This document shows, in pieces, positions 46,110 to 64,000 of a stretch of DNA of 64,000 nt (its first letter is position 1; each line of letters begins with the position of its first letter). The notes beneath the pieces were generated by a model that saw only the letters and a program-made list of their open reading frames with translations, was not told the DNA's origin and searched no databases. The translations under genes and the position numbers were made by a program. The stretch comes from an uncultured cyanobacterium. Lineage in GTDB: Bacteria > Cyanobacteriota > Cyanobacteriia > PCC-9006 > JAAUQQ01. Location of the stretch: contig OY970368.1 of assembly GCA_963718615.1 (NCBI GenBank), positions 512,001 through 576,000 of the forward strand, written 5' to 3'.

Positions 46110-46230
46110 GGTTTTGTTTTCGATTGAGATTTTTCGACATCGCGGCGGTATCTCTGCATAAAGGTTAGGCGATCGCCCTAGAAATGGTGGAGCACAGGCT
46201 CACAGCTAACCAATCTTCTAGGTAAACACC

Positions 46231-48159: not shown

Positions 48160-49092
48160 ATGAACCTCTCCCAAATCCGCGCCGTGATTGCCGTCGCTGA
48201 GCAGAAAAACTTCAGCGCGGCTGCCCTGGAATTGGGTCTTTCGCAATCCGCAGTCAGCCACGCGATCGCCACTTTAGAACAGGAACTGGGTGTGACGTTG
48301 TTTAGTCGCGGTCGGTATGGAGCGGTGTTAACGCCAGCGGGCGATCGCATTGTTCAGCAAGCCCGCTTGGTCCTCAATCATTTAAATAACATGACCCTCG
48401 AAGCCTATAAACATCGAGGGTTGGAGGGTGGGGAGGTTCGTGTCGCCACCTTTCGCAGCGTTGCCACCCATCTGTTACCTCAGGTGATTGTCCAGTTTAA
48501 CCAGCAGTTCCCCGACATTACGGTCACGCTCATTGAGCGGGAACATTACATCGCGATCGAGCATTGTCTACGCCATGGAGAAGCTGATATTGGCTTTACC
48601 TATCACACCGCAGAAACGAACGATTTAGAAACTTTTGAAGTTATTCACGACGAATACCTTGCCCTTTTCCCACCGACAATTCAGGCTCCCCCGGAAAGAC
48701 TAACCTGGGAAGATTTTACAACGATGCCAATTTTACTGGTTCCTTGTTTACCCTGCGGAATCGGTCTGCATCAGCACCTCACGCAACATGCTCCGCAGTT
48801 AGCCACGAATAGTTCCATTCGAGAAGACTCGACTGCTGTTAGCATGATCCACCGAGGGCTCGCCATCGGCATTTTTCCTTGGCTGGCAGCAGAACCAATT
48901 CCCCCCGTAATTCACCGCCGTTCGCTTCCCGTCCCTCATAAGCGAGTCATCATTGCAGCCCGCGTAATCGATCGGCTTCATTCTCCTGCAGTTTTTGCCT
49001 TTTGGGAAGAATTGCAGCGTCATGCTCCGTTTCCCCATCGATTATTAGCATCCCAGGGCCCTATCGAACCTCATCCCATCAAACTAAATTGA
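48160..49092 (+). CDS. LysR-family transcriptional regulator
   Basis: MNLSQI...NFSAAALELGLSQSAVSHAIATLEQELG..LFxR HTH; substrate-binding domain. Confidence 0.93.
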   Translation: MNLSQIRAVIAVAEQKNFSAAALELGLSQSAVSHAIATLEQELGVTLFSRGRYGAVLTPAGDRIVQQARLVLNHLNNMTLEAYKHRGLEGGEVRVATFRSVATHLLPQVIVQFNQQFPDITVTLIEREHYIAIEHCLRHGEADIGFTYHTAETNDLETFEVIHDEYLALFPPTIQAPPERLTWEDFTTMPILLVPCLPCGIGLHQHLTQHAPQLATNSSIREDSTAVSMIHRGLAIGIFPWLAAEPIPPVIHRRSLPVPHKRVIIAARVIDRLHSPAVFAFWEELQRHAPFPHRLLASQGPIEPHPIKLN

Positions 49093-50557
49093 AATCCTCT
49101 AGTCGAATTCGTTTGACTTGTCGAGCATATTTCCAGGTAAAATCAGGCCAGTTATTAATCACTTTACCCGATTCATTTTTGTACCAGCTTTGACAGCTAG
49201 AGCTCCACACCAGTCGCTGCATATCCTCTTGTAGCTTGGCGTTATGGTTGGCCATCACCTCTGACTTAACATCTAAATATTTTAGATTTTTTTGCTTGAT
49301 GAGCTGTAGCAATTGAACAATATAGTCAACCTGTTTTTCAATCATATAAACAATTGAACTATGCCCTAATCCCGTATTCGGCCCAAAGAGCAGAAAGAAA
49401 TTAGGAAAACCAGAAACCATCATGCCAAAATAAGCCTCTGGACCCATTTTCCAAGCCTGGGAAAGCATTTTTCCAGCCACCCCTTCTAGCTGGATGGGAT
49501 GCAAAAATGCATTAGATTTAAAGCCTGTACCAAAAATAATCACATCCACAGGATACTGCTTACCATCCGCTGTAATAATTTCCTTTGGAGTGACTTTGGC
49601 TATCCCATGACTAATGACCTCAACAGTTGGTCGGGCTAAAACTTCATAATAATCATTGGAAAGCAAGATCCGTTTACAGCCAACGGTATATTCGGGTAAT
49701 AACGAATCGTCAAGATTTACTTTTTTTAGTCGACTTAAGATTTTCTGAGTTAGCCTTTGCTGAAATAGTTTTCCGGAAAGCGTCCCCTGGAGAAAAACTC
49801 TAAATCGCATCTCTAAGGTCCAATAAATCCAAAAACGGCGCAGCGCTGGAGCCCAAGGAAAATGATGATTCAACCACTGCTCAACGGACGAGAAGTTATT
49901 GTTGCCTTTTGTCGCAACCCACTGGGGCGATCGCTGAAAAATATAGGTTTTAGCCGCTTTTTCCGCAACCGGGGGAACAAATTGAACGGCACTAGCCGCA
50001 TTACCCACCACAGCCACCGTTTTGCCCTGCAAATCACATTGATGATCCCAGCGCGCTGAATGAAACTGAGTTCCGGCAAATTGGTTCAATCCTTCGATGG
50101 CAGGTATGGAAGGATGATGCAGTTGTCCACAGGCCGAAACCAAAAACTTGGTGTAAAAGATTTGCCCCTGAGAGGTTATCACTTGCCATTGACCATCCGT
50201 CTCTTGAAAAACCGCTTGAGCAATTTCAGTTTTAAACTTGATATGGGCATAGAGCCCATATTTGCTGGCACAATGTTCCAAATACTCTAGAATTTCAGCC
50301 TGCTCGGCATAGCGAAATGACCAATCTTTCTTTTGCTCAAAGGAGTAGGAGTACAAAAAAGAAGGCACATCACAGGCAGAACCTGGATAATGATTATCTC
50401 GCCAAGTTCCTCCAACTCGGCTTTCCTTCTCGCAGATTATAAAATTATCGATCCCTGCTTGCTTCAGACGAATGCCCATGCATAAACCAGCAAACCCAGA
50501 ACCAATAACAACAGCATCTAGAGTACTGATTGAACTAGTAGAGTCATTAGAAATCAT
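49079..50557 (-). CDS. type I Baeyer-Villiger / flavin-containing monooxygenase
   Basis: GSGFAG, GGTWxxNxYPG, BVMO fingerprint FAGTQFHSARW, GNAASA. Confidence 0.9.
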   Translation of the reverse strand: MISNDSTSSISTLDAVVIGSGFAGLCMGIRLKQAGIDNFIICEKESRVGGTWRDNHYPGSACDVPSFLYSYSFEQKKDWSFRYAEQAEILEYLEHCASKYGLYAHIKFKTEIAQAVFQETDGQWQVITSQGQIFYTKFLVSACGQLHHPSIPAIEGLNQFAGTQFHSARWDHQCDLQGKTVAVVGNAASAVQFVPPVAEKAAKTYIFQRSPQWVATKGNNNFSSVEQWLNHHFPWAPALRRFWIYWTLEMRFRVFLQGTLSGKLFQQRLTQKILSRLKKVNLDDSLLPEYTVGCKRILLSNDYYEVLARPTVEVISHGIAKVTPKEIITADGKQYPVDVIIFGTGFKSNAFLHPIQLEGVAGKMLSQAWKMGPEAYFGMMVSGFPNFFLLFGPNTGLGHSSIVYMIEKQVDYIVQLLQLIKQKNLKYLDVKSEVMANHNAKLQEDMQRLVWSSSCQSWYKNESGKVINNWPDFTWKYARQVKRIRLEDFNLV

Positions 50558-50591
50558 GAATAAATATAGATCCTAGTAAAGATTTAGCGCG

Positions 50592-51488
50592 TCAATTCGA
50601 TGGATCAGAGGGAAACTCGGTCATCAACCAATCCACTAACAGCTTTTGGTATGTTTCTGTACATTCTGCAAAAAACATATGACCCACCCCCGGCAATAAC
50701 GTTAAGGTCGTATTCGGAACCTCCTGAGCGATCGCCAGGGCCTGTTGCATCGGGATAAGAGGGTCTTGCTCACCCGCAACAACAGCCAATGGGGCCTGAA
50801 TCTTTTGCAACAAAGGGCCAATATCCATCTCTCTCAGCCCCGCAAACAAATAGAGCAAATGATCTAAATTGTGCCGAGCTGCATCAAGTCGCATAGGCTC
50901 TAAGGTTTCTGACAAGACGGAAGCCTTAAAATAAGCACGACGGTTCGCTGCATTCAAGGCAGATGCAATTCGGTATCTGCGCGAATTAGAGGCACCAAAA
51001 CGGAGGATCCCCTTAAATAATAAACGACCCGGCAGAGGACCACAAGCTAGCTTTTGTAAAAAACCAAACAAGCCAGTCCAGGCTCCCTGATAAAACCCTG
51101 AAATGCAGAGGACAGAGCGAATTTGCTGGGGTCTCAGAGCTGCCAAAAGCAAGGCAGCAAAGGCTCCTGTAGAATGGCCCACGACCATAACGGGCTGATT
51201 ACCTACAAGCTGACCAATCGCCGTGCCTAAAACCTGTGCAAACATTTCCGGTGTCACACGGGCTGGGCCGAAGTCCTCGGGAGCGATCGCCGGAAAATGT
51301 CCAGGCAAACTCAGGGAGTACCAAGGATAGTTCTGCCGAATTTCTGCCGGTAGACTCGGGGGCCAAAAGTGGATCGAAGCCGTGATGCCATGTAAAAAAA
51401 TAATGGGAGGACCAGGCTTGCTGGGGTTGCCCGCGATCGCGACCAAGCGATGTTTTTCTACTTCCAACTCGATAAGATGCTGTTCCAT
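50592..51488 (-). CDS. alpha/beta-fold hydrolase (esterase-like)
   Basis: FLHG oxyanion loop, GHSTG nucleophile elbow, GEQD, GVGH. Confidence 0.88.
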   Translation of the reverse strand: MEQHLIELEVEKHRLVAIAGNPSKPGPPIIFLHGITASIHFWPPSLPAEIRQNYPWYSLSLPGHFPAIAPEDFGPARVTPEMFAQVLGTAIGQLVGNQPVMVVGHSTGAFAALLLAALRPQQIRSVLCISGFYQGAWTGLFGFLQKLACGPLPGRLLFKGILRFGASNSRRYRIASALNAANRRAYFKASVLSETLEPMRLDAARHNLDHLLYLFAGLREMDIGPLLQKIQAPLAVVAGEQDPLIPMQQALAIAQEVPNTTLTLLPGVGHMFFAECTETYQKLLVDWLMTEFPSDPSN

Positions 51489-51548
51489 CGGGATTTAGTG
51501 CCAATCTAAGATAATAGAAAAACGCTCACGGATCCCTATTGTGAGACC

Positions 51549-53354
51549 CTATTGCTGATCGCTCAAATCCTGTTCAGATAGACCTAAGACGCTATTTCTA
51601 ATACCAAAAACATTGGTCGGATCGTTGGCATCTTTAAGCTTTTTGATCAAGCTTAAACTGGTCGGCGAGACCGTATCTTTTAGAAAATCCTTACGAAGCT
51701 TACCAACACCGTGGTGATGGGAAATAGAGCCCCCATTTTTTAGAATAGTTTGCCGCAGCGCATAGTGAATTTTATTCAGGATTTCTTCAGCATGGGGAAC
51801 ATCTTTGGCGTAGAAGCCATTCATAAAGTATATACAGACACCAGTATGATAGATTTGCGAAATTCGATAGGATAAAAACGGAGAACCCGGAAGATTGTGC
51901 TGTTGATGCTGCACTTGTAATTCTTCTCGGACCTGATGCACAACTTCATGAATCTTGCTCCAAGGAACTGTTGTTTCGAAGGTTTCACCTAGAATATGGA
52001 GCGAAGCTAGAAAGTCCCGAATATAGGCGATCGCAAACGTCAGATTGTATCCCCGTTTGCCATTAGTTGAACCACCGGAAACAGCTCCAAATTTTTTAGC
52101 CAGTTGATTAATACTTGTTTTTTGATACGCGACTTCTGGGGCAGTCCCCTCCATCACCAAGGTTGCTGCCACCATCTCACGCGGTTCAAACTTAAGAACA
52201 TCATGGAGATAGAAAAACTTTGCTTTATTCTTCCACTTTGCTTTAGGAGTTTCAGTTGATCTTAACGCTTGTCCAAACTGAAACTGTCCATTGTCAACCA
52301 GGCGAACACTGGCCGGTATAAAGTTAGTTTGTGACAGTTCTCGTAAAAACTCAACCCCTTTTGCTAAGGTGGGAAATACTAAGGAACCATAATGCTGAAC
52401 ATCGGGTAATCGATGGATTCGAATAATGGCTTTGGTGATGAGGCCCAAATTCCCTTCACTACCAAAGAGCAGTTGCTGCAATTGCATCCCCATCGACATA
52501 CGTGGACAAGCGATTTTTTGCTCAACCAGTCCCATAGGGGTAAGCAACGTAACACTCTCCACAACCTCTTCAATATTGCCATAGCGGTTTTTTTTCATGC
52601 CGCTAGCATTGGTCGAAATCCATCCCCCTAAGGTCGAGAGCTCTAGGCTATCGGGCTCATGACCACAGGTAAAACCTGCCTCTTTTAGGGTTTCTTCTAA
52701 CTGAGTTCCAGTAATCCCTGCTTGCACACAGGCTTGCATGTTTTTAGCATCAATCCATTCCACTTTATTCATTCTTTTGGTGTTGACGGCAACGATCATG
52801 CGCGTCTCCTCAGCGGGCAACATTAAAGCCCCACTGACACAGGTTCTGCCCCCAACGGGAACCAAACAGACATCAAACTGAAGCGCCAACTGAATCAATT
52901 GCTCGGCATCTGATTCTGATTCACAGAAAAAAACCATATCTACCCCACGGGGCAGTTGCTCAAAAAGCACTGGAAAAATTTCTTCCGCACCAGCTTGTCC
53001 GTGACTATGGCTCAGCCGCACAGAATCATCAAACGTGTAGGTATGCGGCGGAAAATGCTTTGCGATCGCCTCACAAAATCCTTCATTGCAGTGGGGAGGC
53101 GCGATGGGCTTCTCTTGCACCTCTGTCCGCAGGTCATTGAGATCCAAGGATACCCCTAGCCCCTTCTCTAGATAGGGCAAAAGATAGGGCATAGAATAGC
53201 CGCAAATCTGATAACGATCGCCAGTGAGGCTAACCTCACGCGTCTCAGGATTAACTACAAATTCCGTGTCTGAATATCCCCAACGATGCGACCAAAGCCC
53301 GCTGCCGTCCGACTGAGAGAGGTTTTCCATTTCCGAATTTTGAGTTTTGAACAT
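51549..53354 (-). CDS. alkyl-dihydroxyacetonephosphate synthase-like FAD-linked enzyme
   Basis: GHEPDSLELSTLGGW, ASGMKKNRYGNIE, GSEGNLG, ASVRLVDN, GETFETTVPW, CIYF, GGSISHHHGVGK. Confidence 0.88.
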   Translation of the reverse strand: MFKTQNSEMENLSQSDGSGLWSHRWGYSDTEFVVNPETREVSLTGDRYQICGYSMPYLLPYLEKGLGVSLDLNDLRTEVQEKPIAPPHCNEGFCEAIAKHFPPHTYTFDDSVRLSHSHGQAGAEEIFPVLFEQLPRGVDMVFFCESESDAEQLIQLALQFDVCLVPVGGRTCVSGALMLPAEETRMIVAVNTKRMNKVEWIDAKNMQACVQAGITGTQLEETLKEAGFTCGHEPDSLELSTLGGWISTNASGMKKNRYGNIEEVVESVTLLTPMGLVEQKIACPRMSMGMQLQQLLFGSEGNLGLITKAIIRIHRLPDVQHYGSLVFPTLAKGVEFLRELSQTNFIPASVRLVDNGQFQFGQALRSTETPKAKWKNKAKFFYLHDVLKFEPREMVAATLVMEGTAPEVAYQKTSINQLAKKFGAVSGGSTNGKRGYNLTFAIAYIRDFLASLHILGETFETTVPWSKIHEVVHQVREELQVQHQQHNLPGSPFLSYRISQIYHTGVCIYFMNGFYAKDVPHAEEILNKIHYALRQTILKNGGSISHHHGVGKLRKDFLKDTVSPTSLSLIKKLKDANDPTNVFGIRNSVLGLSEQDLSDQQ

Positions 53355-53544
53355 AGCTTATTTATTTAGGATGAATGCGTTATTGAAGATAAAAGCTTTC
53401 GAACTGTAGCATGAGGGCTTTTAAAATATTATGCTGGGCGCTTTGAGAATACAGAGTCTTTTTTAGCAGATCCTTAGATTCTTTTTCAACAGAGCTCCGT
53501 AAAATACAATAACCCTATAGTCGCAAAATTCAAGGACCGAGTGC

Positions 53545-54207
53545 TCAACGAACCATGATTTTCTGCGAGCCCGTAAAGGTTCGATAGTGAGGCTGATCGG
53601 CGATCGCAAGCAACTCAGAGTCACCTTTGCTATCGCCATAGGCATAAAGATAATATTGCTGCAAATCACCTAACAAAGCTGTTAAACGAATAACCTTTTC
53701 TTTTCCATAACAACTATCTCCGAGCAGTTTTCCCGTGATTTTATCCTGTTCAACCGCGAGCTGAGTCGCAATGACATCGTTAATGCCGAGCCTTATTGCC
53801 CAAGGTCGAAGATAAACCTCTAAGTTTGCACTGACCACCACCACACGATGCCCTTGAGCTTGATGCCAAGCCAATCGCTCCATCGCCTGGGAATTGAGTA
53901 ATTTGGGCAATGTCACCTCAGAAAACTGAGCCGCCGCTGCTTGTAGGTCTGGCAATGACCAGCCTCGAAAATATTGGGTAACGAGGGTTTCTTTGATAAA
54001 GTGGTTTGAGCAACGACCTAAAACATAGGAAATCACGGCACGGCGTTTCTTCAACAAACCTTGACGCATTTTTTGGGCTGTACAAGCCGACTTCACAAAC
54101 GGTAAAAACGAGTCTTTCCGGGTCAATGTGCCATCAAAATCAAAGACCGCGATGGTCGGTCGCTGAACGAGATTCGACATGGAAATAGAAGGCGAAGAAT
54201 CTAGCAT
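53545..54207 (-). CDS. HAD-IB family phosphatase
   Basis: FDFDGTLT, VVSA, GKEK, YGDSKGD. Confidence 0.9.
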   Translation of the reverse strand: MLDSSPSISMSNLVQRPTIAVFDFDGTLTRKDSFLPFVKSACTAQKMRQGLLKKRRAVISYVLGRCSNHFIKETLVTQYFRGWSLPDLQAAAAQFSEVTLPKLLNSQAMERLAWHQAQGHRVVVVSANLEVYLRPWAIRLGINDVIATQLAVEQDKITGKLLGDSCYGKEKVIRLTALLGDLQQYYLYAYGDSKGDSELLAIADQPHYRTFTGSQKIMVR

Positions 54208-54244
54208 GAACGGCTAGGGTAAAGAATTTTGTAGATTGTATAGC

Positions 54245-55033
54245 TTACAGGGTTTGGGCAAGCGGTAATGGCTGAGATGAAGTATCAGCATTCGCCATCT
54301 CCTCAATTCTAGAACGAATTTCGTCCACAATCTCGCGGCAGAGTCTTCGATTGCTCTCGACCTCCAATCTCGCTTGATAGGGCGCAATATCAATCGGACG
54401 ACCAAACTGAATACGAATAGGATGTCGTTTGGGAAAATGCGCCCCTTTAGGAAAAGCCTGAAAACTTCCTTCAATATGAACCGGTATAATTGAGACATTG
54501 AGCTGCATTGCCAAAAAACCAGTCCCGAGCTTAAACGGCTGTAGTTTCCCTGTTTTTGAGCGTGTCCCCTCCGGAAATAGCAAGATCATTTTATTTTGAG
54601 CGACAAGATCCTGACAAGACTTAAGCGCATCTGTCGAATGGCCCTGTCGCTGAAAGGGGATCATGTTTAAAACATGTTGGCAAATTTTCCCTTTGATAGG
54701 ATGATCAAAGAAATAATCCTTGGCTGCCAAGCTATAGACCTGATTCATATAGCGATTTGCTGCGGCAATAGTTGCTGGCCCATCCAAATGACTAGAATGG
54801 TTGGCCGCCAAGAGAACAGGTTGATCCTTAGGAAGGTTATCTAAACCTTCGATTTTAAGCTGAAACCACATGCGCAGAATAAACTGGCACATGTACCAAA
54901 TCAAAGCCTGTAGGACAGGATTAAGAATTCTTTGAAATAAGACAATACTTAATTTTTGATGAAGATTAGGAGCTAACCCAAAATTTGCCGAAAGCGTAGT
55001 CTTCAGGGGAACCATCAATTTTAAGGGAAGCAT
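54245..55033 (-). CDS. glycerolipid (PlsC/LPLAT-family) acyltransferase
   Basis: NHSSHLD, FPEGTRS, PFKLG. Confidence 0.9.
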   Translation of the reverse strand: MLPLKLMVPLKTTLSANFGLAPNLHQKLSIVLFQRILNPVLQALIWYMCQFILRMWFQLKIEGLDNLPKDQPVLLAANHSSHLDGPATIAAANRYMNQVYSLAAKDYFFDHPIKGKICQHVLNMIPFQRQGHSTDALKSCQDLVAQNKMILLFPEGTRSKTGKLQPFKLGTGFLAMQLNVSIIPVHIEGSFQAFPKGAHFPKRHPIRIQFGRPIDIAPYQARLEVESNRRLCREIVDEIRSRIEEMANADTSSQPLPLAQTL

Positions 55034-55279
55034 CAATTTATTTTTTATCCGTTCAAAAGTGATTCGATCTTGTCCAGATAGACCCTTTTCTCATCGATAA
55101 TCTAGCTTAGCCAAATTTCGAAACGGTTGCCTGCAAAGGCAAACATCAAAGCCTAACACAATATTCCTATGTGAGACTTTACTGGCAATCAGGCGCTAGT
55201 TTTCCTGCAAAACGTCGACTTGTTGAAATCCTCACAGAATCGTCTTTCAATTGAAGCGAGAGTAAAGTTTTGCTCAGTA

Positions 55280-56251
55280 TCAAGTCAAATTTTTTCTCAC
55301 CCAGTCGCCGGTTGTAGCCATTCCTTCTTCTAGATTAATTTGAGGCTGATACCCTAGCCGATGACGTGCTTTTTCGATCGAATAGGGATAACGTCGTGTA
55401 GAAATATCAATTGTGTCCGCAGTGGCTCCTATTTTGTTATTAGGAAAAAGTTTTAAGATTATTTTTGCCAGTATTGCAGGAGCTGAAGGGTATTTTGGTA
55501 AATTTTCGATTTTTGCGAGTCTTTGATAATAGTCTTTCCAAGTCGTTTCACAGCCATCGGTGATATTGAAGGCTTCACCATAGGCTTCCTGCTCAAGGGC
55601 AAGAAAGATAGCGTCCACTAAATTGTCCACATAGACGTGGTTCATGACGCCTCGACCATTATTGAGCAGGAAGAACTTACGCGATCGCATCATCTCCAAA
55701 GGACGAATCACCCAGGGCACAGAGCGAGGACCATAGACATCTCCCGCTCGGATGACAATGACCCCAAAGTCCGGTGGGTTGTTGAGGGCTAGAACTTGCT
55801 GATCAGATTCTAGTTTTGTGAGGCAGTAAGGATTTTTACCCTGATAAAACGGTCCAGACTCCGTTACATACTTGGGATATCGAACCCCATAAACCACCAC
55901 GCTAGAAAGCTGAACAAAGGCTTTAACCTTGGCCTGTTTTGCAGCATGGGCCATCGTTAAAGTGCCTTCTACATTCACTTTGCGGAACTCCGCTAGGTCC
56001 CCTTCTTCTTTTACGATCGCAGCCGTATGAATAACCAGATCTATATCCTTACAAGCCCTGTGGGCAATTTCTGGATCAGTCACGCTACCTGCGATCATTT
56101 CGATGCCAAGCCGTCCTGCCAAATCGCTGGTATCTGGCGATCGCTGTAGTCCTCTAACCTTGATGCCTCTGGCTACAGCCAACTCCGCAATTCGCTGTCC
56201 AATACAACCACCAATACCCGTAATCAACAGAGTTTTATGACTTAGGTCCAT
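55280..56251 (-). CDS. extended SDR (3-beta-HSD / NAD-dependent epimerase-like reductase)
   Basis: TGIGGCIG, HTAA, LSS, YCLTK, VYGP. Confidence 0.85.
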   Translation of the reverse strand: MDLSHKTLLITGIGGCIGQRIAELAVARGIKVRGLQRSPDTSDLAGRLGIEMIAGSVTDPEIAHRACKDIDLVIHTAAIVKEEGDLAEFRKVNVEGTLTMAHAAKQAKVKAFVQLSSVVVYGVRYPKYVTESGPFYQGKNPYCLTKLESDQQVLALNNPPDFGVIVIRAGDVYGPRSVPWVIRPLEMMRSRKFFLLNNGRGVMNHVYVDNLVDAIFLALEQEAYGEAFNITDGCETTWKDYYQRLAKIENLPKYPSAPAILAKIILKLFPNNKIGATADTIDISTRRYPYSIEKARHRLGYQPQINLEEGMATTGDWVRKNLT

Positions 56252-56458
56252 AAATAACCACAATTAATGATTAAGACTCAAAGCACGTCCCAACACGTAC
56301 CAATATGACAAGAAATATAGCCCTGTATTACACATGCAGAGTGTAACATAGAGAACCAGGGAGAACCAAGGAGTTCCATTTGCTGACTCCTTGGTCGTTC
56401 CATCTCAGCAAACGGTTCGATCGTCCACCCAAGATCAAATGACAATCAGGAATGACAA

Positions 56459-56986
56459 TCAGGTTCGTTCCTTGATTGCCTGAATGACTTGAGCCGTGCA
56501 ATCTTCTAGACTGGTTTCCTGGGTCTTGCACTCCACCTCAGGATTGAGAGGGGGCTCATAGGGATCATCAATGCCAGTGAACTGCTTAATCTCTCCAGCC
56601 CGCGCTTTTTTGTATAAACCCTTGACATCCCGTGCTTCGCAGACTTCCAAGGGAGTACTGACATAGACCTCAATAAAGGCATCAATCTGAGCCCGGATCT
56701 CTTCTCGAATCGCACGGTAGGGCGAAATCACCGGCACCAGCACAATGACGCCGTTTCGAGCTAGGAGTTTGGTGACAAATCCAATCCGGCGGATATTCGT
56801 GTCCCGGTCTTCTTTACTAAACCCAAGGTCTTTCGTCAGTCCTTCGCGGACGATGTCACCATCAAGGACCTCTACTCGATATCCTTGCGATCGCAGTTGT
56901 TGCTCGACTTCAGCGCAAATCGTTGATTTTCCAGAACCGCTTAAACCTGTAAACCAAACTGCAAGACCTTTATGAAAATTGCTCAT
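56459..56986 (-). CDS. cysC: adenylyl-sulfate kinase
   Basis: WFTGLSGSGKST, LDGD, RDVKGLY, FTGIDDPYE. Confidence 0.95.
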   Translation of the reverse strand: MSNFHKGLAVWFTGLSGSGKSTICAEVEQQLRSQGYRVEVLDGDIVREGLTKDLGFSKEDRDTNIRRIGFVTKLLARNGVIVLVPVISPYRAIREEIRAQIDAFIEVYVSTPLEVCEARDVKGLYKKARAGEIKQFTGIDDPYEPPLNPEVECKTQETSLEDCTAQVIQAIKERT

Positions 56987-57382
56987 GCCCTACCTAGAAA
57001 ATCTACGGGGTTAAATTGTGTTCTGTAATTTTATCTGAAAACGTCAGACGTCTAACTTCGCCTTGAATTCAGGGTTATCAGATTGAAGATTCGGTAAACC
57101 CAGGTAAAACTACGGGCTTCGGATGTATCTCCATGATATTTTGATGCAAGGCAAGACCCAAATGCCAATTGATATTACGTCCTAATTATGAAGCTTTTGT
57201 AAGGCTTTTCTGCCCTCAATGATGAAATTCTGACTGATTTTCTAATGGGATTGCCTAAAGTGGGACTCTCATAGGAGATCATATGCAGGGACAGATACGT
57301 TGATTATTAATTACGATGCAGCACAATTGCATTTAGATATATCTTATACATCAGCCTGATGCAGGCTTAGGGAAGCAGTCTA

Positions 57383-58234
57383 ATGAAAGTAGCTATTCTT
57401 GCAGGTGGTCTGGGAACGCGGCTAGAGGAAGAAACCACAGAAAAACCAAAGCCAATGGTTGAGATCGGTGGAAAACCGATCCTGTGGCACATTATGAAGC
57501 ACTATTCCCATCATGGGTTTGATGACTTTGCGATCGCCCTAGGCTACAAAGCAGAAGTCATCAAAAAATACATGGTGGACTATTGTTCCCTCAATAGTAA
57601 TCTTACGGTCAACCTCCGCAACGGCACCGTCCAGCGCCACGATGGCAACAGCCCCAACTGGAATATTGACTTGATCGATACGGGACTCCATACCAATACC
57701 GGGGGACGCATCAAGCGCTTGGCTCCTTACCTCGGTAATGAAACCTTCATGTTGACCTGGGGGGATGGGGTTTCCGATCTGGACATCAATCAGTTGCTGG
57801 CATTCCATCGTTCCCATGGTAAACTCGCGACCCTCACAGCGGTTCATCCCCCTGCTCGGTTTGGCCATTTGGATCTTAATGGGGCTCAGGTGACGGAATT
57901 TTCTGAAAAGCCCCAAACCCGTGAAGGATGGATTAATGGTGCCTTTTTTGTCCTAGAGCCTGGTATTTTTGACTATATTGACAGTGACGCAACCCAATGG
58001 GAAAAAGAACCGCTGGAGCGTCTAGCCCAAGATGGACAACTCATGGCCTATCAGTACCGAGGCTTCTGGCAATGTATGGATACCTTGCGGGATAAGCGCC
58101 GCCTAGAAAGTCTGTGGGCATCGGGAAACGCACCTTGGAAAACGTGGGAGGAAAAGGATGAGAGTCTTACTAACCGGGCATCTGGGATACATTGGAACCG
58201 TAATGGTTCCCCTGTTGCTCGCCAAGGGGCATGA
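57383..58234 (+). CDS. rfbF: glucose-1-phosphate cytidylyltransferase
   Basis: LAGGLGTRLxEET..PKPM, TGGRIKR, INGAFF, GFWQCMDT.RD, APWK. Confidence 0.92.
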   Translation: MKVAILAGGLGTRLEEETTEKPKPMVEIGGKPILWHIMKHYSHHGFDDFAIALGYKAEVIKKYMVDYCSLNSNLTVNLRNGTVQRHDGNSPNWNIDLIDTGLHTNTGGRIKRLAPYLGNETFMLTWGDGVSDLDINQLLAFHRSHGKLATLTAVHPPARFGHLDLNGAQVTEFSEKPQTREGWINGAFFVLEPGIFDYIDSDATQWEKEPLERLAQDGQLMAYQYRGFWQCMDTLRDKRRLESLWASGNAPWKTWEEKDESLTNRASGIHWNRNGSPVARQGA

Positions 58235-59180
58235 GGTTGTTGGCCTCGACAGCGATCTCTTTCGCGGCAGTACCTTTGGGGGGGGGATTTGCCCCATTCC
58301 AGAACTGCGGAAAGATATTCGGGACGCTGTCGCAGCGGATCTAGAGGGCTTCGACGCAGTGCTTCACTTGGCCGGGTTATCCAACGATCCCCTCGGTCAT
58401 TTTAATCCTCAGCTCACGGATGAAATTAACCATCTCGCGACGGTACGGCTAGCGGAATTGGCCAAAGCCGCAGGGGTATCTCGGTTTGTGTTTTCTTCCT
58501 CTTGCAGCAACTATGGCGCGGGCGGGCAGGACTGGCTGACGGAGGACTCCCCCCTCAATCCGATGACCCCCTACGGTCGGTCCAAGGTTGACTCAGAGCA
58601 TTCGCTCAACCAGATGGCGGACGATCGCTTTAGTCCCACCCATCTGCGCAATGCCACGGCCTTTGGAGCCTCTCCCCGAATTCGCTTTGACCTGGTGCTG
58701 AATAATCTGATGGCTTGGGCTTTCACCACAGGTCGGGTCTATATCAAAAGCGACGGCACACCTTGGCGACCGATTGTGCATATCGAAGACATTGGTCGAG
58801 CCTTTATTGCGGTCATGGAAGCCCCTCGGGACAAGGTCCATGGTGAAGCCTTTAATGTGGGCCGTAATCAGGATAATTATCGCGTGCGCGAGATTGCCAA
58901 CATTGTCCAAGCCACGGTACCGGGCTGCGAAATTGAGTATGCGCCCGATGGCGGACCGGGGCCGAGCTGCTACCGCGTGGATTGCAGCAAGATCCAACGG
59001 GTGTTGCCGGAGTTTCAGCCCCAGTGGGATGCTTGCAAAGGGGCAAAACAACTTTATGAAACCTTCCAGAAAGTGGGGTTAACCCTCGAAGAATTTGAGG
59101 GACCAAAATACAGCCGAATCGCTCATGTGCGATCGCTCCTGCAATCCGGCAGTCTAGGAGATCAGCTCCGCTGGCGCTAG
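58158..59180 (+). CDS. NAD-dependent nucleotide-sugar epimerase/oxidoreductase (SDR)
   Basis: TGHLGYIG, HLAGLSND, SSCSNYG, YGRSK. Confidence 0.88.
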   Translation: MRVLLTGHLGYIGTVMVPLLLAKGHEVVGLDSDLFRGSTFGGGICPIPELRKDIRDAVAADLEGFDAVLHLAGLSNDPLGHFNPQLTDEINHLATVRLAELAKAAGVSRFVFSSSCSNYGAGGQDWLTEDSPLNPMTPYGRSKVDSEHSLNQMADDRFSPTHLRNATAFGASPRIRFDLVLNNLMAWAFTTGRVYIKSDGTPWRPIVHIEDIGRAFIAVMEAPRDKVHGEAFNVGRNQDNYRVREIANIVQATVPGCEIEYAPDGGPGPSCYRVDCSKIQRVLPEFQPQWDACKGAKQLYETFQKVGLTLEEFEGPKYSRIAHVRSLLQSGSLGDQLRWR

Positions 59181-59237: not shown

Positions 59238-60467
59238 ATGGATAATCCCAACGTCGCCTGTCACGCCTGCAAAAATCCCCAGCTTGATTTGATTCTTTCC
59301 TTTGGAAAGACCCCCCTAGCGGACGCGCTGCTATCCGCTACCCAGTTGCAGGAGCCAGAAATTTTTGCGCCGCTGGACTTAGCCTTTTGCCCCCAATGCG
59401 GATTGGTTCAAATTACCGAAGTTATCGATCCAGAAATTCTCTTTTGCCGAGACTATCCTTACTATTCGTCCGTTTCCAAATCCTTGATGGAGCACTTTGA
59501 AGCGAGTGCTAAGGCCCTCATCTTGGCTAGAAATTTGACGCAAGCGAGCCTCGTGGTTGAAGCCGCCAGCAATGATGGTTACTTACTCAAACACTTTGCC
59601 CAATCGGGAATTCCGGTTCTGGGCATCGACCCCGCTGAGGGGCCGGTTCAAGTGGCTCAGGCCGCTGGGATTCCGACGCTCCGCACTTTTTTTGGTGAAG
59701 AACTTGCCCAGCAGTTGCGCCAAGCGGGCAAGCGGGTGGATGTCTTTTTGGCCAATAATGTTTTGGCCCATGTACCTGATCTCAATGGCTTTGTCGCAGG
59801 GATTTCTCTACTCCTCAAAGACAGCGGCGTCGCGGTGATTGAAGCACCCTATGTCGTCGATTTGGTGGAGCAAGGCGAATTCGATACGATTTACCATCAG
59901 CACCTTTGCTATTTCTCTGTCACCGCCCTGGATCGGCTCTTCCGTCGCCATGGGCTCTTTCTCAACCGGATCGAACGCACTTCTATCCATGGGGGCTCGC
60001 TGCGGCTTTTTGTGGAACCCCGAGAGGCGGTGGAAGCATCGGTAACGGCGCTCTTGCAAATGGAACAGGCGCAGGGGGTCGATCGACTCGATTATTATCA
60101 TGATTTTGCAGCGCGGGTGGCGATGATTAAGCGATCGCTCCTCACCCTCCTTCAAGATCTCAAACATCAGGGTAAACGCATTGCGGCCTACGGCGCAGCG
60201 GCAAAGGCGACCACCCTCTTGGCCTACATCGGTCTGGATCAGCAGTATCTAGACTACGTGGTTGATCTCAATCCCTATAAACACGGACGCTATATGGGCG
60301 GCAACCATTTACCAATTTTCCCACCTAGCAAACTCCTGGAAGATCAGCCGGATTACGTATTGATTTTGGCCTGGAACTTTGCAGAGGAAATTATGCGACA
60401 GCAATCTACCTATCGTGACCAAGGGGGACGCTTTATCGTGCCAATTCCTGAGCCCCAGATTATCTAA
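59238..60467 (+). CDS. NDP-hexose C-methyltransferase-family protein (Zn-finger + SAM domain)
   Basis: CHAC...[46 protein letters not shown]. Confidence 0.87.
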
Positions 60468-60553: not shown

Positions 60554-61780
60554 ATGACTGTTGCGTCTGCCTCTGCGCCCCATCTCAGCACTTCGGACAA
60601 TGATCGCCCCATCTCCTGCCCCAACTGCGGCCATGATGACCTCACGCCGTTCTACGAAGTCCTAGATGTGCCGGTCCATAGCTGTTTGATGATGCCAAGC
60701 CCCGCCGCAGCTCTAGACTTTCCACGGGGTGATGTCAAGCTAGCCGTTTGCAACCACTGCGGTTTTATTACCAATACGGCATTTGATGCCAAGTGGTCTG
60801 CCTATGCTCCCAATTATGAGGACCAACAGAGCTATTCACCGACCTTTAATCAATTTGCCCAGGACCTCGCCCAGCGGTTAATCGACAAGTACGATTTGCA
60901 CAATAAAGACATCGTTGAAATTGGCTGTAGCAAAGGCGACTTTCTTTTGTTGCTCTGCGAATTGGGCAATAACCGTGGTGTTGGCATTGACCCATCGGTT
61001 GTCCCTAGACGGGTGCAAAGTGAGGCCGCCGATCGCGTCACCTTTATCCAAGACTACTACTCCGAAAAGCATGCCGAATATGTCGGCGATTTTATCTGTT
61101 GTCGCCACACCCTAGAACATATTCAGCCCACACAAGAATTCCTCAAAACCGTACGGCAGTCCATTGGCGATCGCCTGCATATCAACGTATTTTTTGAAAT
61201 TCCTGAAACCCTGCGTGTGCTTCGAGACCAAGCCTTCGAAGACATCTACTATGAGCACTGCTCGTACTTCACGCCGGGTTCCTTGGCCCGACTGTTTCGA
61301 GCCTGTGGGTTTGAAATCACGGACCTCTACCTAGGCTATGGGGACCAGTACTTGCTGATTGAAGCCCAACCCATGGCCACGCCTTCCACAACCCTTCATG
61401 CCCTTGAGGAAAGCCCTGAAGCTACAGTCCAGGAAGTTCAAAACTTCGTACATAAAATCACAGAGAAGTTGAACTATTGGAAAGATCACTTAGCAACTAT
61501 GCAGCGCCAGGGAAAACGCGTTGTGGTTTGGGGCTCAGGCTCAAAATGCGTTGCGTTCCTGACAACGCTCAATACCCTGGACCAAGTGCAACATGTGATC
61601 GACATCAATCCCCACCGTCACGGCCAATTTATTCCAGGGATTGGCAAGGAGATCAAGCCCCCAACGTTTTTGAAAACCTATCAACCCGATGAGATTATTG
61701 TCATGAATGGGATCTACTGCGCTGAAATCCAGCAAATGCTAGACGAAATGGGCGTTCAAGCTCAGCTTACCCCTTTATAA
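60554..61780 (+). CDS. second C-methyltransferase-family protein (divergent paralog)
   Basis: CPNC...CNHCG, EIGCSKG, HTLEHI, DIYYEH, WGSGSK. Confidence 0.82.
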   Translation: MTVASASAPHLSTSDNDRPISCPNCGHDDLTPFYEVLDVPVHSCLMMPSPAAALDFPRGDVKLAVCNHCGFITNTAFDAKWSAYAPNYEDQQSYSPTFNQFAQDLAQRLIDKYDLHNKDIVEIGCSKGDFLLLLCELGNNRGVGIDPSVVPRRVQSEAADRVTFIQDYYSEKHAEYVGDFICCRHTLEHIQPTQEFLKTVRQSIGDRLHINVFFEIPETLRVLRDQAFEDIYYEHCSYFTPGSLARLFRACGFEITDLYLGYGDQYLLIEAQPMATPSTTLHALEESPEATVQEVQNFVHKITEKLNYWKDHLATMQRQGKRVVVWGSGSKCVAFLTTLNTLDQVQHVIDINPHRHGQFIPGIGKEIKPPTFLKTYQPDEIIVMNGIYCAEIQQMLDEMGVQAQLTPL

Positions 61781-62083
61781 CAGTCACCAATCTTTAATTT
61801 TATGAATCCTTAACAGAGGCCCGAGCTGGTATGTACTTAACGTAAAGGGAAAAGCATTAGATCGGGATTTCCACTAGAATGATCTATGAATTGAACCATT
61901 CAATAATGCCACCATCAATCTCAATCCTACCTCAAAATCTTTGATTGGTTTATTTCAGTACATCCCGGTCTAATCAGGCGTTATCTGTAAACTTACACTT
62001 CTGACTAAAATACCGATCCTCTATGTTTCTGATTGAGAGACATATGCTGTTGGCCTGAGTCAGAAAGGAATACTTATTTAACT

Positions 62084-63379
62084 ATGCGAGTTGTCATTTT
62101 AACGGTTGGCTCAAGGGGTGACATTCAACCCTGTCTCGCCCTAGGATTGGGGCTCAAAGCTGCCGGTCATCAGGTTTGCATTGCGACCGAGCGAATTTAC
62201 CAGGAGTGGCTGACCCAAGAAGGATTGGAGTATGCCTACCTCCCAGGGGATACTAAAAAGCGTCTGGCGGATGAACCTTGGTTTAAATTACTAGAAGAAA
62301 CGCGCGATCGCCCCATTCTATCGGCCTATCGTGCCTATCGTGAGTTTCTCTTACCAACACTACGGGAGCTGCTCGATGCCGCCTGGGACGCCTGCCAAGG
62401 GGCAGACGCAATTATTGGCCTACCCACGGTCTATGCCGGTAGCCACATTGCCGAGAAGCTAGGAATTCCCTTCTTTGGCACTTGGACCTGCCCCTTCACC
62501 CCTACCCGATATTTTCCCCATTCCTGGTCCCGTCTCGCCCAGCAACAGTGGCTAGGTGGAACACTCAATCGGTTTACCTATTGGGTTCCTCAGTTTCTCG
62601 ATCAGAAAATGTTGATGGGGACCATTAACCAATGGCGCAAAGAGACCTTGAATCTGCCTAAAATGGGTGAAAATGGCGTCAATACCAGTTCCTTCCCGAC
62701 GCTTTATGGATTTAGTCCCAGCGTCGTCTCCCCGCCTCCAGACTGGGATAACAATGTTCATGTAACGGGCTACTGGCTGCTCAATCGCATCAGCTCGGTG
62801 CAGCCCCCCGAAGACTTAGTTAACTTTATTGCGGCAGGCTCCCCACCGGTTTACATCGGTTTTGGGAGTATTGGCGATCGCCATGCCACACACACCATTC
62901 AAACCGCAATTGATGCGGTGATCAAAAGCGGTCAACGGGCCGTTCTAGAAACAGGATGGGCACAGTTAAATCAACTCAATTTACCCCCACAGGTTTTTAA
63001 GTTAGATTCTGGCAGAGTTCCTCATGCTTGGCTCTTTCCCCGCATGGCAGCGTTAGTCCACCATGGCGGCGCAGGTACCACCGGTCAGGGGTTGCGCAAC
63101 GGCAAGCCAACGGTCGTTATTTATCAAAAATTTACGGATTACTGTTTCTGGGGACAACGCATTGCCGCATTGGGTGTTGGTCCTGAACCGATTTATATTG
63201 GTGATGTCACCGTCAATTCCCTCGCCCAGGCCATTGAAACCATGGTAACGGACGCCAACATGCAGAAGCGCGCAGCTCTACTAGGTGGACAAATTCGAGA
63301 CGAAGATGGTGTTGCTCGGGCGATCGAGCTCTTTCATCAGCATGCTAATCACCCAAAAGCCACCTATACCTATGCCTAA
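62084..63379 (+). CDS. GT1 glycosyltransferase (sterol glucosyltransferase / GT28_N-like)
   Basis: GSRGDIQP, VYIGFGS, PHAWLF, HHGGAGTT. Confidence 0.9.
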   Translation: MRVVILTVGSRGDIQPCLALGLGLKAAGHQVCIATERIYQEWLTQEGLEYAYLPGDTKKRLADEPWFKLLEETRDRPILSAYRAYREFLLPTLRELLDAAWDACQGADAIIGLPTVYAGSHIAEKLGIPFFGTWTCPFTPTRYFPHSWSRLAQQQWLGGTLNRFTYWVPQFLDQKMLMGTINQWRKETLNLPKMGENGVNTSSFPTLYGFSPSVVSPPPDWDNNVHVTGYWLLNRISSVQPPEDLVNFIAAGSPPVYIGFGSIGDRHATHTIQTAIDAVIKSGQRAVLETGWAQLNQLNLPPQVFKLDSGRVPHAWLFPRMAALVHHGGAGTTGQGLRNGKPTVVIYQKFTDYCFWGQRIAALGVGPEPIYIGDVTVNSLAQAIETMVTDANMQKRAALLGGQIRDEDGVARAIELFHQHANHPKATYTYA

Positions 63380-63478: not shown

Positions 63479-64000
63479 ATGAGTCACTTCGACACCATAT
63501 CAAAAAAGGCATTGTTCGTCGTTGCTCATCAAGATGACGAAGTTTTTATTGTGTCTAGGATCAACAAACATTTAAGCGAGGGCGATCGAATCTTTGTTAT
63601 CTGGACTGCAGCATCCTATCAAAAAGGAGAAACCTTTAAAAATACGAGAATCCAAGAGTCAAAGACTCTGATGAAAAAGCTCGCAATTCCCGAAGATCAA
63701 TTTGATTTCCTCATGTATCCCGATGGTTCAACCCATCTCCACATTCCCAATCTCATTGCAGACTTAAAGCAAAGAATTCAGTTCATTCAACCCGATACGG
63801 TTTATATTCCAGCCTATGAGGGAGGGCACATTGACCATGACACAGCGCATTACTGCGTGGTTCAAGCCATCCGTCAGCTCAATTCCAGTATAGAAATCTA
63901 CGAATTTCCAGAATACAGCGGCTATGGAACTCCACTGGGCCTACTGCCGCTTCGAATGCGCCGCTACCCCGAGACACTAAAGACCCAATGTAGAACGCTC
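63479..64000 (+). CDS. PIG-L/LmbE-family deacetylase, N-terminal part (runs off window)
   Basis: Manual translation MSHFDTISKKALFVVAHQDDE...RIQES...YPDG...YEGGHIDHD shows the HxDD and HxDH metal motifs. Confidence 0.85.
   Translation, partial: MSHFDTISKKALFVVAHQDDEVFIVSRINKHLSEGDRIFVIWTAASYQKGETFKNTRIQESKTLMKKLAIPEDQFDFLMYPDGSTHLHIPNLIADLKQRIQFIQPDTVYIPAYEGGHIDHDTAHYCVVQAIRQLNSSIEIYEFPEYSGYGTPLGLLPLRMRRYPETLKTQCRTL

Follow-up and report, generated by a model that had tools for sequence, protein, structure and literature searches.

An alkyl-DHAP synthase homologue linked to polyketide, sugar and sulfation genes in a cyanobacterium

Does the alkyl-DHAP synthase (AGPS) homologue of an uncultured cyanobacterium belong to the true AGPS family, and what might such an enzyme make among the genes that surround it? 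The gene lies in the window, that is, the whole analyzed stretch of 64,000 nucleotides, of a genome that is itself cyanobacterial (its 6.1-Mb contig is complete and yields 19 matches to phycobilisome families). It starts with ATG and encodes 601 amino acids with zero internal stops (Table 1). The sequence-only reading had left its position on the minus strand unmentioned. That reading had described a eukaryote-like AGPS with intact catalytic signatures, and all the motifs that it quoted were found in the translation: GHEPDSLELSTLGGW (residues 231-245), ASGMKKNRYGNIE (250-262), ASVRLVDN (348-355), GETFETTVPW (456-465), CIYF (507-510) and SHHHGVGKLRK (545-555). This agreement is far above chance.

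Both FAD domains are present (PF01565, 5.2e-32; PF02913, 1.6e-35). The phmmer search against PDB sequences matched guinea-pig AGPS (4bby) with an E-value of 2.2e-144 across residues 23-587 and Dictyostelium AGPS (2uuu) with 1.2e-80, whereas the best match of the next family, glycolate oxidase and lactate dehydrogenases, had an E-value of 2.9e-18. The two domains are also found in GlcD and D-lactate-dehydrogenase-type FAD oxidases, but the protein can hardly be an oxidase of this type: it scores 137.6 bits with the GlcD model TIGR00387 (cut-off 567.9) and 53.9 with NF008408 (cut-off 897), the GlcD-like paralogues from its own genome are 24-28% identical to it and are separated from it in the tree, and AGPS-specific residues are present. 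By its sequence, the protein is a true relative of AGPS; like the sequence-only reading, the analysis sets it apart from GlcD and D-lactate dehydrogenases.

The predicted substrate-binding arginine, active-site tyrosine and histidine triad were also retained. R351, R446 and Y509 of the window protein align with R352, R447 and Y508 of the Dictyostelium enzyme, which are important by mutagenesis according to a figure legend of a review (PMC3509576, Figure 5); the Cavia counterparts of the two arginines and the catalytic tyrosine are R419, R515 and Y578. In the mutant entries 4bc7 and 4bca, the substituted positions are precisely an Arg and a Tyr that are unchanged in the window protein. H546-H548 align with residues 615-617 of the Cavia protein, which we take to be the HHH loop over the flavin. 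Across 21 aligned homologues R351, Y509 and H546-548 never vary, and at least 90% of them have R446. Compared with eukaryotic AGPS/ADPS (EC 2.5.1.26; 4bby, 2uuu), the protein shares a full-length alignment, two FAD domains and the Arg/Arg/Tyr/HHH set, but it has no peroxisomal context, its first 22 residues are unmatched, and its partners are separate small proteins with an extra phosphatase among them.

The phylogeny that had been suggested as a check (a quick search with SH-aLRT support only, Myxococcota being represented by MAG homologues) placed the window protein inside the AGPS family. A group of 76 rows, including three eukaryotic sequences, is split from the GlcD-like paralogues of the same genome (95* branch, length 3.12); one row (L014), a wrong ORF that joins the outgroup with a branch length of 10, was disregarded. 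The protein belongs to a cyanobacterial clade nested among other bacterial sequences, and it shares a clade with the AGPS of Dulcicalothrix desertica PCC 7102, genome G525 and a Pleurocapsa MAG (SH-aLRT 96), while the two named eukaryotes branch near the tree base, distant from it. Because it sits in a bacterial clade, the protein is not specially eukaryote-like, and the earlier label has to be dropped; for the same reason we rejected recent acquisition from eukaryotes.

Bacterial AGPS had been thought to be known mainly from myxobacteria. This holds for biochemistry, the Myxococcus xanthus enzyme being the only bacterial AGPS tested according to the portions of the literature covered, but not for distribution: homologues in many bacterial phyla are already in print, as far as the same portions go, and we found at least 596 bacterial loci. 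A cyanobacterial copy is indeed rare (five of the 401 sampled genomes of the class), although not unique, since named strains and MAGs of Dulcicalothrix, Merismopedia, Planktothrix, Nostoc and others also carry one. Orthologues of AGPS, the thioester reductase and the SDR described below are all absent from five genomes of the family's other genus. The literature searched does not discuss cyanobacteria as producers of AGPS-type ether lipids, and its supplementary AGPS and hgl tables may name these genomes.

Overlooked by the sequence-only reading, the operon and the surrounding cluster are the more interesting part of the locus (Table 1). The genes for an extended SDR, an acyltransferase (AT), an HAD phosphatase and AGPS share one strand and are spaced 37 to 243 bp apart, and catalytic motifs are present in AT, HAD and SDR alike. 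The closest solved structure to AT is PlsC (5kym, 3.6e-13); in view of this resemblance, a DHAP-specific role is no more than a possibility. The top NCBIfam match of the SDR is the lipid keto-reductase OleD (1e-29, under its cut-off).

Table 1. Genes of the window assigned to the AGPS operon, its flanks and the adjoining sugar genes; roles given as putative are predictions.
Feature	Coordinates	Strand	Evidence
Type I Baeyer-Villiger/flavin monooxygenase (BVMO), 492 aa, ends the minus-strand run	49079..50557	-	PF00743 5e-20; FAGTQFHSARWD motif
Alpha/beta-hydrolase, 298 aa, just downstream of AGPS (60-bp gap)	50592..51488	-	PF12697, PF00561
AGPS (alkyl-DHAP synthase) homologue, 601 aa	51549..53354	-	PF01565 + PF02913, PDB 4bby, tree
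HAD-IB phosphatase, 220 aa; putative alkyl-glycerol-phosphate phosphatase	53545..54207	-	PF12710 2.2e-38; TIGR01490 152 bits (cut-off 98.3); DFDGT
PlsC/GPAT-family acyltransferase (AT), 263 aa, TTG start uncertain; putative DHAP or sn-2 acyltransferase	54245..55036	-	PF01553 2.9e-27; HSSHLD, FPEGTR
Extended SDR (NAD-dependent epimerase/dehydratase family), 327 aa; putative 1-alkyl-DHAP keto-reductase	55280..56263	-	PF01370 1e-35; TGIGGCIG, YCLTK
APS kinase (PAPS supply), 175 aa	56459..56986	-	PF01583 2.6e-67; NF002059 287.5 bits (cut-off 244)
Glucose-1-phosphate cytidylyltransferase (CDP-sugar supply)	57383..58234	+	TIGR02623 378 bits (cut-off 300); G403 counterpart 82% identical
NAD-dependent sugar epimerase/dehydratase	58158..59180	+	PF01370 5.4e-41; G403 counterpart 86% identical
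Sugar C-methyltransferase	59238..60467	+	PF08484, PF08421; G403 counterpart 75% identical
Second methyltransferase, C-methyltransferase C-terminal domain	60554..61780	+	PF13489, PF08484; G403 counterpart 78% identical
GT1 (EryCIII/MGT-like) glycosyltransferase	62033..63379	+	PF03033, PF06722; G403 counterpart 69% identical
PIG-L family deacetylase, overruns the window end	63479..64000	+	PF02585

In M. xanthus, according to the parts of the literature covered, the AGPS operon MXAN_1676-1675-1674 includes a FAR-GNPAT gene and a NAD-epimerase-family gene, and AGPS is accompanied, as here, by acyltransferase and fatty-acyl reductase functions and by a NAD-epimerase-family SDR; the likeness concerns the operon as described, the sequences in our tree being Myxococcota MAG homologues. 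Unlike in M. xanthus, FAR and AT are unfused in the window locus, a stand-alone thioester reductase is found beside a polyketide synthase (PKS), and there are also an HAD phosphatase and genes for sugars and sulfation.

The BVMO (PtlE model 3.8e-68, under the cut-off) and the alpha/beta-hydrolase, which directly follow AGPS, could point to breakdown or remodelling of ether lipids by AGPS together with the BVMO and the esterase, or the AGPS-like enzyme could perform different chemistry, for example of the iron-sulfur-linked YgcU type. We regard both as very improbable. Neither an Fe-S subunit nor a GlpABC-type or kinase partner was found within the AGPS operon, the neighbors of AGPS being HAD and the alpha/beta-hydrolase, and about half of the positions are identical in the HMMER alignment with true AGPS, whereas the divergent sister group of the tree reaches 30-34%. 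The partners (AT, reductase, phosphatase) are biosynthetic, and the cluster of a sister genus (genome G403) contains no counterpart of either the BVMO or the hydrolase.

The neighborhoods of 80 other bacterial AGPS loci were compared by phmmer (78 for the nearest-neighbor counts). In 22 of the 80, an AT homologue lies no more than 6 kb from AGPS; in 55 no operon partner was found near AGPS by phmmer, although Pfam revealed missed partners in some of these. The operon context of AGPS is not universal. The nearest neighbor of AGPS is AT, alone or fused, in 17 of the 78 loci and a classical SDR in 25. Searches of the 80 loci with the window SDR, alpha/beta-hydrolase, APS kinase and sugar genes (tblastn, phmmer) returned almost nothing, and Pfam on neighbor genes was needed to reveal SDR and AT partners. 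The window SDR bears only a remote likeness to epimerase-type domains that accompany AGPS elsewhere: it is 24% identical to the fusion domain beside AGPS in Nitrospira and has no match to the epimerase-type gene beside AGPS in Chloracidobacterium.

Three cyanobacterial cassettes resemble the window locus in that AT, HAD and a thioester reductase accompany AGPS: those of Dulcicalothrix desertica PCC 7102 (L028) and G525 (L104), where HAD adjoins AGPS, and that of the Pleurocapsa MAG (L021). Their reductases are 46-51% identical to the stand-alone thioester reductase of this genome but, unlike in the window locus, belong to FAAL-ACP-thioester-reductase genes that lie beside AT, HAD and AGPS and provide loading. 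At the Pleurocapsa locus, phospholipid head-group genes (CdsA, CDP-alcohol phosphatidyltransferase, PS decarboxylase) replace the sugar and sulfate genes of the window cluster.

Around the operon extends a cluster of about 44 kb, which reaches about 29 kb past the window end, up to a PfaA-like PKS. Besides a Pfa/hgl-type PKS, an ACP and a thioester reductase, it contains glycosyltransferases, three sulfotransferases, an MFS transporter, APS kinase and CDP-sugar genes. The Pfa/hgl assignment means matches to Pfa-family models above cut-off (TIGR02813 for PfaA, 2001 vs 1010; TIGR02814 for PfaD, 650 vs 449); four PP-binding stretches were found in the PKS cluster. The thioester reductase (TIGR01746, 355 vs cut-off 213) neighbors the PKS and its ACP, at a distance of about 22 kb from AGPS. 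The acyl-ACP reductase of the alkane pathway (TIGR04058) has no match in this genome, whereas the Synechococcus control was matched; the CarF/PEDS1 vinyl-ether desaturase model (PF10520) has no match either, a result that carries no weight, its control likewise matching in no genome.

From BVMO to the PfaA-like PKS, 26 of the 30 genes recur, in a different order, on one G403 contig. APS kinase (82% identical) adjoins AT-AGPS there too, the AT gene being split into two overlapping ORFs, and SDR and HAD form one fusion protein of 560 aa, which is 17 kb away from AGPS-AT and surrounded by genes for methyltransferase, sulfotransferase and PKS. Because only one sister genus supports it, the linkage of AGPS to the thioester reductase is effectively a single evolutionary observation.

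According to the parts of PMC11804610 covered, hgl-like islands of non-heterocytous cyanobacteria yield long-chain 1,3-diols and their glycosides, and their products in such strains are termed 'enigmatic biosynthetic products'. These islands resemble the window cluster in combining a Pfa-type PKS, an ACP and a thioester reductase, which make long-chain alcohols, with subsequent glycosylation, the comparison being drawn through Pfa-family models alone and not through Anabaena hgl sequences. The window cluster differs in that the text of PMC11804610 contains no occurrence of 'ether' or 'sulfotransferase' and does not mention AGPS.

Taken as a whole, the locus is probably explained by a functional FAD-dependent AGPS that works in an operon-encoded pathway on a PKS-derived alcohol, followed by sugar and sulfate decoration. 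Like its eukaryotic counterpart, AGPS would bind 1-acyl-DHAP, release the fatty acid by way of a flavin-DHAP adduct and put a fatty alcohol in its place, 1-O-alkyl-DHAP being the product. The PlsC-type acyltransferase could supply acyl-DHAP or act later in sn-2 acylation, the extended SDR would reduce the 2-keto group, and the HAD phosphatase would remove the phosphate to yield 1-O-alkylglycerol. The alcohol would most likely come from the thioester reductase of the same conserved cluster, which may release the product of the Pfa/hgl-type PKS from the ACP. Glycosyltransferases, methylated CDP-sugar genes, APS kinase and the three sulfotransferases might then decorate the ether lipid, and the MFS transporter might export it. 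The predicted cluster product is a glycosylated, sulfated 1-O-alkylglycerol lipid. What is observed here is that the protein belongs to the AGPS family, that its catalytic residues are conserved, and that the genes are linked in a conserved cluster; all substrates, the sequence of reactions, the polyketide source of the alcohol and the final lipid are inferred.

Products of the hgl type are C24 or longer. Alcohols of this length may be too long for the window AGPS, the tunnel of the Dictyostelium enzyme accommodating about 16 carbons according to the part of the review covered (PMC3509576). This tunnel length would fit a self-contained membrane ether-lipid pathway with ordinary C16-C18 fatty alcohols; in that case the genes for PKS, sugar and sulfate would form an independent cluster that happens to be adjacent. 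The FAAL-ACP-reductase genes at the other cyanobacterial AGPS loci, which would load ordinary fatty acids, and the resemblance of the Pleurocapsa locus to a phospholipid pathway agree with such a separation, as does the GC3 of the AGPS module, which is lower (0.40-0.49) than that of the PKS genes (0.60-0.66). Nevertheless, we consider it rather unlikely. The window locus has no FAAL-ACP-reductase, and the sole close reductase homologue is beside the PKS and ACP; in G403 the SDR-HAD fusion is located among tailoring and PKS genes; and APS kinase adjoins the module in both genera, with the sulfotransferases in the same cluster. The low GC of the module had suggested a foreign island, but the low-GC stretch takes in many of the cluster's tailoring genes, and the same genes have normal GC3 in the sister genus; composition alone is therefore no proof of recent foreign origin.

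Returning to the preferred pathway with a PKS-derived alcohol, we suggest tentatively, as a possibility somewhat short of an even chance, that a small non-heterocystous cyanobacterial lineage joined an ether module of the eukaryote/myxobacterium type to an hgl/Pfa-type PKS, the long-chain alcohol from the PKS being ether-anchored to glycerol and furnished with methylated sugars and sulfate. AGPS homologues themselves are common in bacteria, and the genomic context is the new part. If the proposal is true, the PKS-ether-sugar-sulfate lipid would represent a class not described from cyanobacteria, and this would be the first AGPS recruited into a specialized-metabolite cluster. Bacterial ether lipids serve as environmental biomarkers and are relevant to the 'lipid divide' between bacteria and archaea. 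The complete cassette of reductase, acyltransferase, AGPS, keto-reductase and phosphatase in several cyanobacterial genera would be a testable source of 1-O-alkylglycerols in mats and sediments. Where it is united with an hgl-like PKS cluster, it suggests a specific candidate for one of the island products called 'enigmatic' in the parts of PMC11804610 covered.

The alkyl-DHAP synthase (AGPS) gene of the window is a single minus-strand ORF, and the plus strand opposite it is full of stops. All the AGPS motifs quoted in the sequence-only reading were found in its translation, in which Pfam detected both FAD-linked oxidase superfamily domains. A search of all PDB sequences returned guinea-pig AGPS as the top match, with an E-value of 2.2e-144 over residues 23-587. 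Dictyostelium AGPS followed at E 1.2e-80, whereas the next-best matches, glycolate oxidase and lactate dehydrogenases, had E-values of 2.9e-18 and weaker. With 137.6 bits, the protein falls short of the 567.9-bit cut-off of the curated GlcD model, and the tree described below sets the AGPS family apart from the GlcD-like paralogues of the same genome by a starred branch 3.12 long. These data bear out the earlier assignment to the AGPS type and not to GlcD. No second AGPS copy was found in the genome, the nearest paralogues being GlcD-like (28% and 24% identity).

The catalytic residues were compared with PDB entries of two mutants, each one residue away from the wild type. Entry 4bca has CIFF in place of CIYF and 4bc7 has ASIHL in place of ASIRL; the window protein carries the wild-type residue in both cases (Y509 and R351, respectively). 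In the alignment, R351, R446 and Y509 correspond to positions 349, 444 and 505 of the Dictyostelium chain, that is, with an offset of 3, to the published R352, R447 and Y508. According to the available part of a review (PMC3509576), mutagenesis showed these residues to be catalytically important, Tyr508 is the likely base, the reaction starts with proton abstraction and goes through an N5-flavin adduct that first releases the fatty acid and then takes up the alcohol, and the tunnel of the Dictyostelium enzyme accommodates about C16. R351, Y509 and H546-H548 are invariant across 21 aligned homologues, and R446 is present in at least 90% of them.

The phylogeny comprised 79 rows and was computed by a quick IQ-TREE run with SH-aLRT supports only; row L014 is a wrong ORF and should be disregarded. 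The window protein falls inside the AGPS family, in a clade of 18 rows (support 96) that unites all photosynthetic-cyanobacterial sequences with a short contig of a "Pseudomonadota" MAG and nests among sequences from Acidobacteriota, Marinimicrobia and Chloroflexota. The named eukaryotes Pharyngomonas and Lagenidium branch near the base of the tree, and homologues from genomes of the same phylum but another class form a distinct clade. Given this placement, the protein belongs to the AGPS family proper, but the earlier description of it as eukaryote-like does not hold. The "Pseudomonadota" contig (L032) is 6.5 kb long, with an IS110-type transposase flanking its AGPS gene; its position inside the cyanobacterial clade reflects either a mis-binned contig or transfer.

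The source genome is cyanobacterial, a complete chromosome of 6.1 Mb in which phycobilisome families have 19 matches. At least 120 homologues, with identities of 55-73%, were listed by a word-indexed search. Their sources are the cyanobacteria Merismopedia, Pseudanabaena, Nostoc, Planktothrix, Symploca and Cyanothece, as well as Acidobacteriota, Anaerolineae and Marinimicrobia; in JGI annotation, many of them bear the name AGPS. With one genome per species, at least 596 AGPS loci were found, the best 80 of which span more than ten phyla. Many cluster representatives (P0137, P0147, P0151, P0158 and others) are giant fusions of 2100-2700 aa with a C-terminal AGPS domain. AGPS homologues have been reported from Acidobacteriota, Poribacteria, Latescibacterota, Desulfobacterota, Chloroflexota, Marinisomatota, Myxococcota and others, while MXAN_1676 of M. 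xanthus is the only enzyme experimentally tied to ether lipids in the available parts of these sources (a PNAS paper and its preprint, Science Advances, a sponge-symbiont preprint, Environmental Microbiology). The earlier statement that AGPS-type ether-lipid synthesis in bacteria is mainly known from myxobacteria thus applies, as far as these sources go, to the experimental evidence but not to the distribution of the gene. AGPS is present in five of 401 genomes (5 of 169 genera) of a class-level sample, including the genome studied here, and in 14 of 401 genomes of a phylum-wide sample, where the 13 others all lie outside the class (41-46% identity). In the sister genus g156 both genomes have the gene, one full-length (71% identity) and one truncated by a contig end; in the other genus of the family, g157, it was found in none of five genomes, which are 62-88% complete.

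On the minus strand, the AGPS gene is preceded by genes for APS kinase, an extended SDR, a PF01553 acyltransferase and a HAD-IB phosphatase, and followed by genes for an alpha/beta-hydrolase and a flavin monooxygenase, with intergenic gaps of 34 to 243 bp. The operon encodes no iron-sulfur partner of AGPS. Scans for consensus promoters and terminators at the operon were no richer than those of shuffled sequence. Catalytic motifs are intact in the acyltransferase (HSSHLD and FPEGTR), the HAD phosphatase (DFDGT) and the SDR (TGIGGCIG and YCLTK). The SDR belongs to the epimerase/dehydratase family, its top named model being the OleD lipid keto-reductase, under the cut-off. The closest solved relative of the acyltransferase is PlsC, so its predicted substrate may be either DHAP or the sn-2 position. 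The monooxygenase carries FxGxxxHxxxWD, as FAGTQFHSARWD, which we take to be the Baeyer-Villiger fingerprint of type I enzymes (BVMO). Together with the hydrolase acting as an esterase, it could convert a PKS ketone via an ester to an alcohol. FMO-like genes also occur near AGPS in Chloracidobacterium (L096) and Actinomycetota (L066), at 26% identity. Elsewhere in the window, an RTX protein gene has an antisense ORF (see the table).

Features in and around the AGPS cluster and in related loci
Feature	Location	Strand	Length	Remarks
AGPS	window 51549..53354	-	601 aa	
BVMO and alpha/beta-hydrolase	window 49079-51488	-		directly after AGPS
RTX calcium-binding repeat protein	window 46231-47163	+		7 repeat stretches
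ORF antisense to RTX gene	window 46165-46998	-	277 aa	no family match
Low-GC3 region, window	window 49000-57400			AGPS module and most tailoring genes GC3 0.35-0.50; flanks/PKS 0.60-0.69
Low-GC3 region, same genome	561-588 kb			as above
Protein between PKS block and AGPS operon	L113:9353-10669	-	438 aa	no Pfam/NCBIfam match; 57% identity in G403
Protein between PKS block and AGPS operon	L113:1975-2736	+	253 aa	no Pfam/NCBIfam match; 74% identity in G403
SDR-HAD fusion of G403	L115:7041-8723	-	560 aa	SDR residues 15-237, HAD 357-540
AGPS-adjacent acyltransferase of G403	L019:6520-7373	-	97 and 195 aa	two overlapping ORFs
Cyanobacterial AGPS homologue L102	G574:C52:20512-22230			one in-frame TGA within match

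Only one full-length thioester reductase of the genome is a stand-alone protein; it has 481 aa, is encoded about 22 kb away from AGPS and shares 46-51% identity with the AGPS-adjacent reductase domains of other cyanobacteria. Its neighbours are a 115-aa ACP, a PfaD enoyl reductase, a KS/CLF/AT protein, a KR-DH protein, an SDR and a PfaA-type protein of 2137 aa that contains four ACP domains; scores exceeded the cut-offs of the models for PfaA, PfaD and thioester reductase. The stretch from this PKS block to the AGPS operon holds genes for CDP-glucose synthase, a sugar epimerase/dehydratase, two C-methyltransferase-type proteins, GT1 and GT2 glycosyltransferases, a PIG-L deacetylase, an MFS transporter, three sulfotransferases, two further methyltransferases and two proteins without family match.

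The sister-genus genome G403 has 26 of the 30 cluster genes on one contig, in changed order and with 52-86% identity; the monooxygenase, the hydrolase, one sulfotransferase and a classical SDR are missing from its cluster, which has an extra sulfate permease. There the SDR and HAD, separate genes in the window, are fused, which speaks for reduction being followed directly by dephosphorylation. The fusion lies 17 kb from AGPS and the acyltransferase, amid methyltransferase, sulfotransferase and PKS genes, which argues that the ether module and the PKS and tailoring genes form one cluster. The split of the G403 acyltransferase may be a frameshift or a draft-assembly error. In the five incomplete g157 genomes, close counterparts of the thioester reductase and SDR are absent, like AGPS, which would fit the whole cluster having been gained or lost together; the linkage evidence comes from two related genera. 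GC3 of the AGPS module is 0.40-0.49 versus 0.60-0.66 in the PKS genes, while the G403 orthologues of low-GC3 genes have normal GC3 (AGPS 0.589); the low GC is therefore no proof of foreign origin.

For 78 other loci, the ORFs closest to AGPS on either side (147 proteins, three long ones having been excluded for size) were analyzed with Pfam. A classical SDR adjoins AGPS in 25 loci and a PF01553 acyltransferase in 17: 13 stand-alone upstream, one downstream and three in fusions that also contain FAR, AMP-ligase or ACP domains. FAR-type domains and HAD were each found in three loci. By phmmer, 22 of 80 loci had an acyltransferase homologue (AT) within 6 kb. Six further cyanobacterial loci were inspected: G525 has a FAAL-ACAD-ACP-thioester-reductase gene divergent from AT-HAD-AGPS; in Dulcicalothrix PCC 7102, AGPS-HAD is divergent from genes for FAAL-ACP-AT and FAAL-ACP-reductase; in a Pleurocapsa MAG (L021), genes for PS decarboxylase, CdsA, CDP-alcohol phosphatidyltransferase, an SDR and a fatty-acid desaturase flank FAAL-ACP-reductase, AT and AGPS; G574 has AT-AGPS; an SDR lies near AGPS in a Caldora MAG; and in G495 AGPS is truncated by the contig end. 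Therefore, the eukaryotic-pathway triad of reductase, acyltransferase and AGPS recurs in the cyanobacterial clade. The Pleurocapsa locus looks like an ether-phospholipid (plasmanyl-PE-like) cluster, unexpected in cyanobacteria. A PF00487 desaturase lies beside AGPS in three cyanobacterial-clade loci (L021, L105 of G574 and L032) and could be a candidate for vinyl-ether formation.

From family membership and gene linkage we infer the following pathway. The PKS would supply an acyl-ACP, which the thioester reductase would convert to a long-chain alcohol; the acyltransferase would form acyl-DHAP, AGPS 1-O-alkyl-DHAP, the SDR 1-O-alkyl-glycerol-3-phosphate and the HAD phosphatase 1-O-alkylglycerol; glycosylation, sugar methylation and sulfation, with APS kinase as the PAPS source, would precede export. 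In the available part of PMC11804610, the hgl-like islands of non-heterocytous cyanobacteria lack hglT and their products are called "enigmatic"; tetracosane-1,3-diol and its glycosides are linked to the islands of two strains, which makes a PKS-derived primary alcohol plausible; that part mentions neither ethers nor sulfotransferases.

The AGPS gene is thus a new family member in a phylum where AGPS is rare and where our literature searches found no paper discussing it. It sits in a predicted complete ether-lipid module that is combined with a cluster of Pfa/hgl-type PKS, glycosylation and sulfation genes, and this setting is a variant of a known pathway type.
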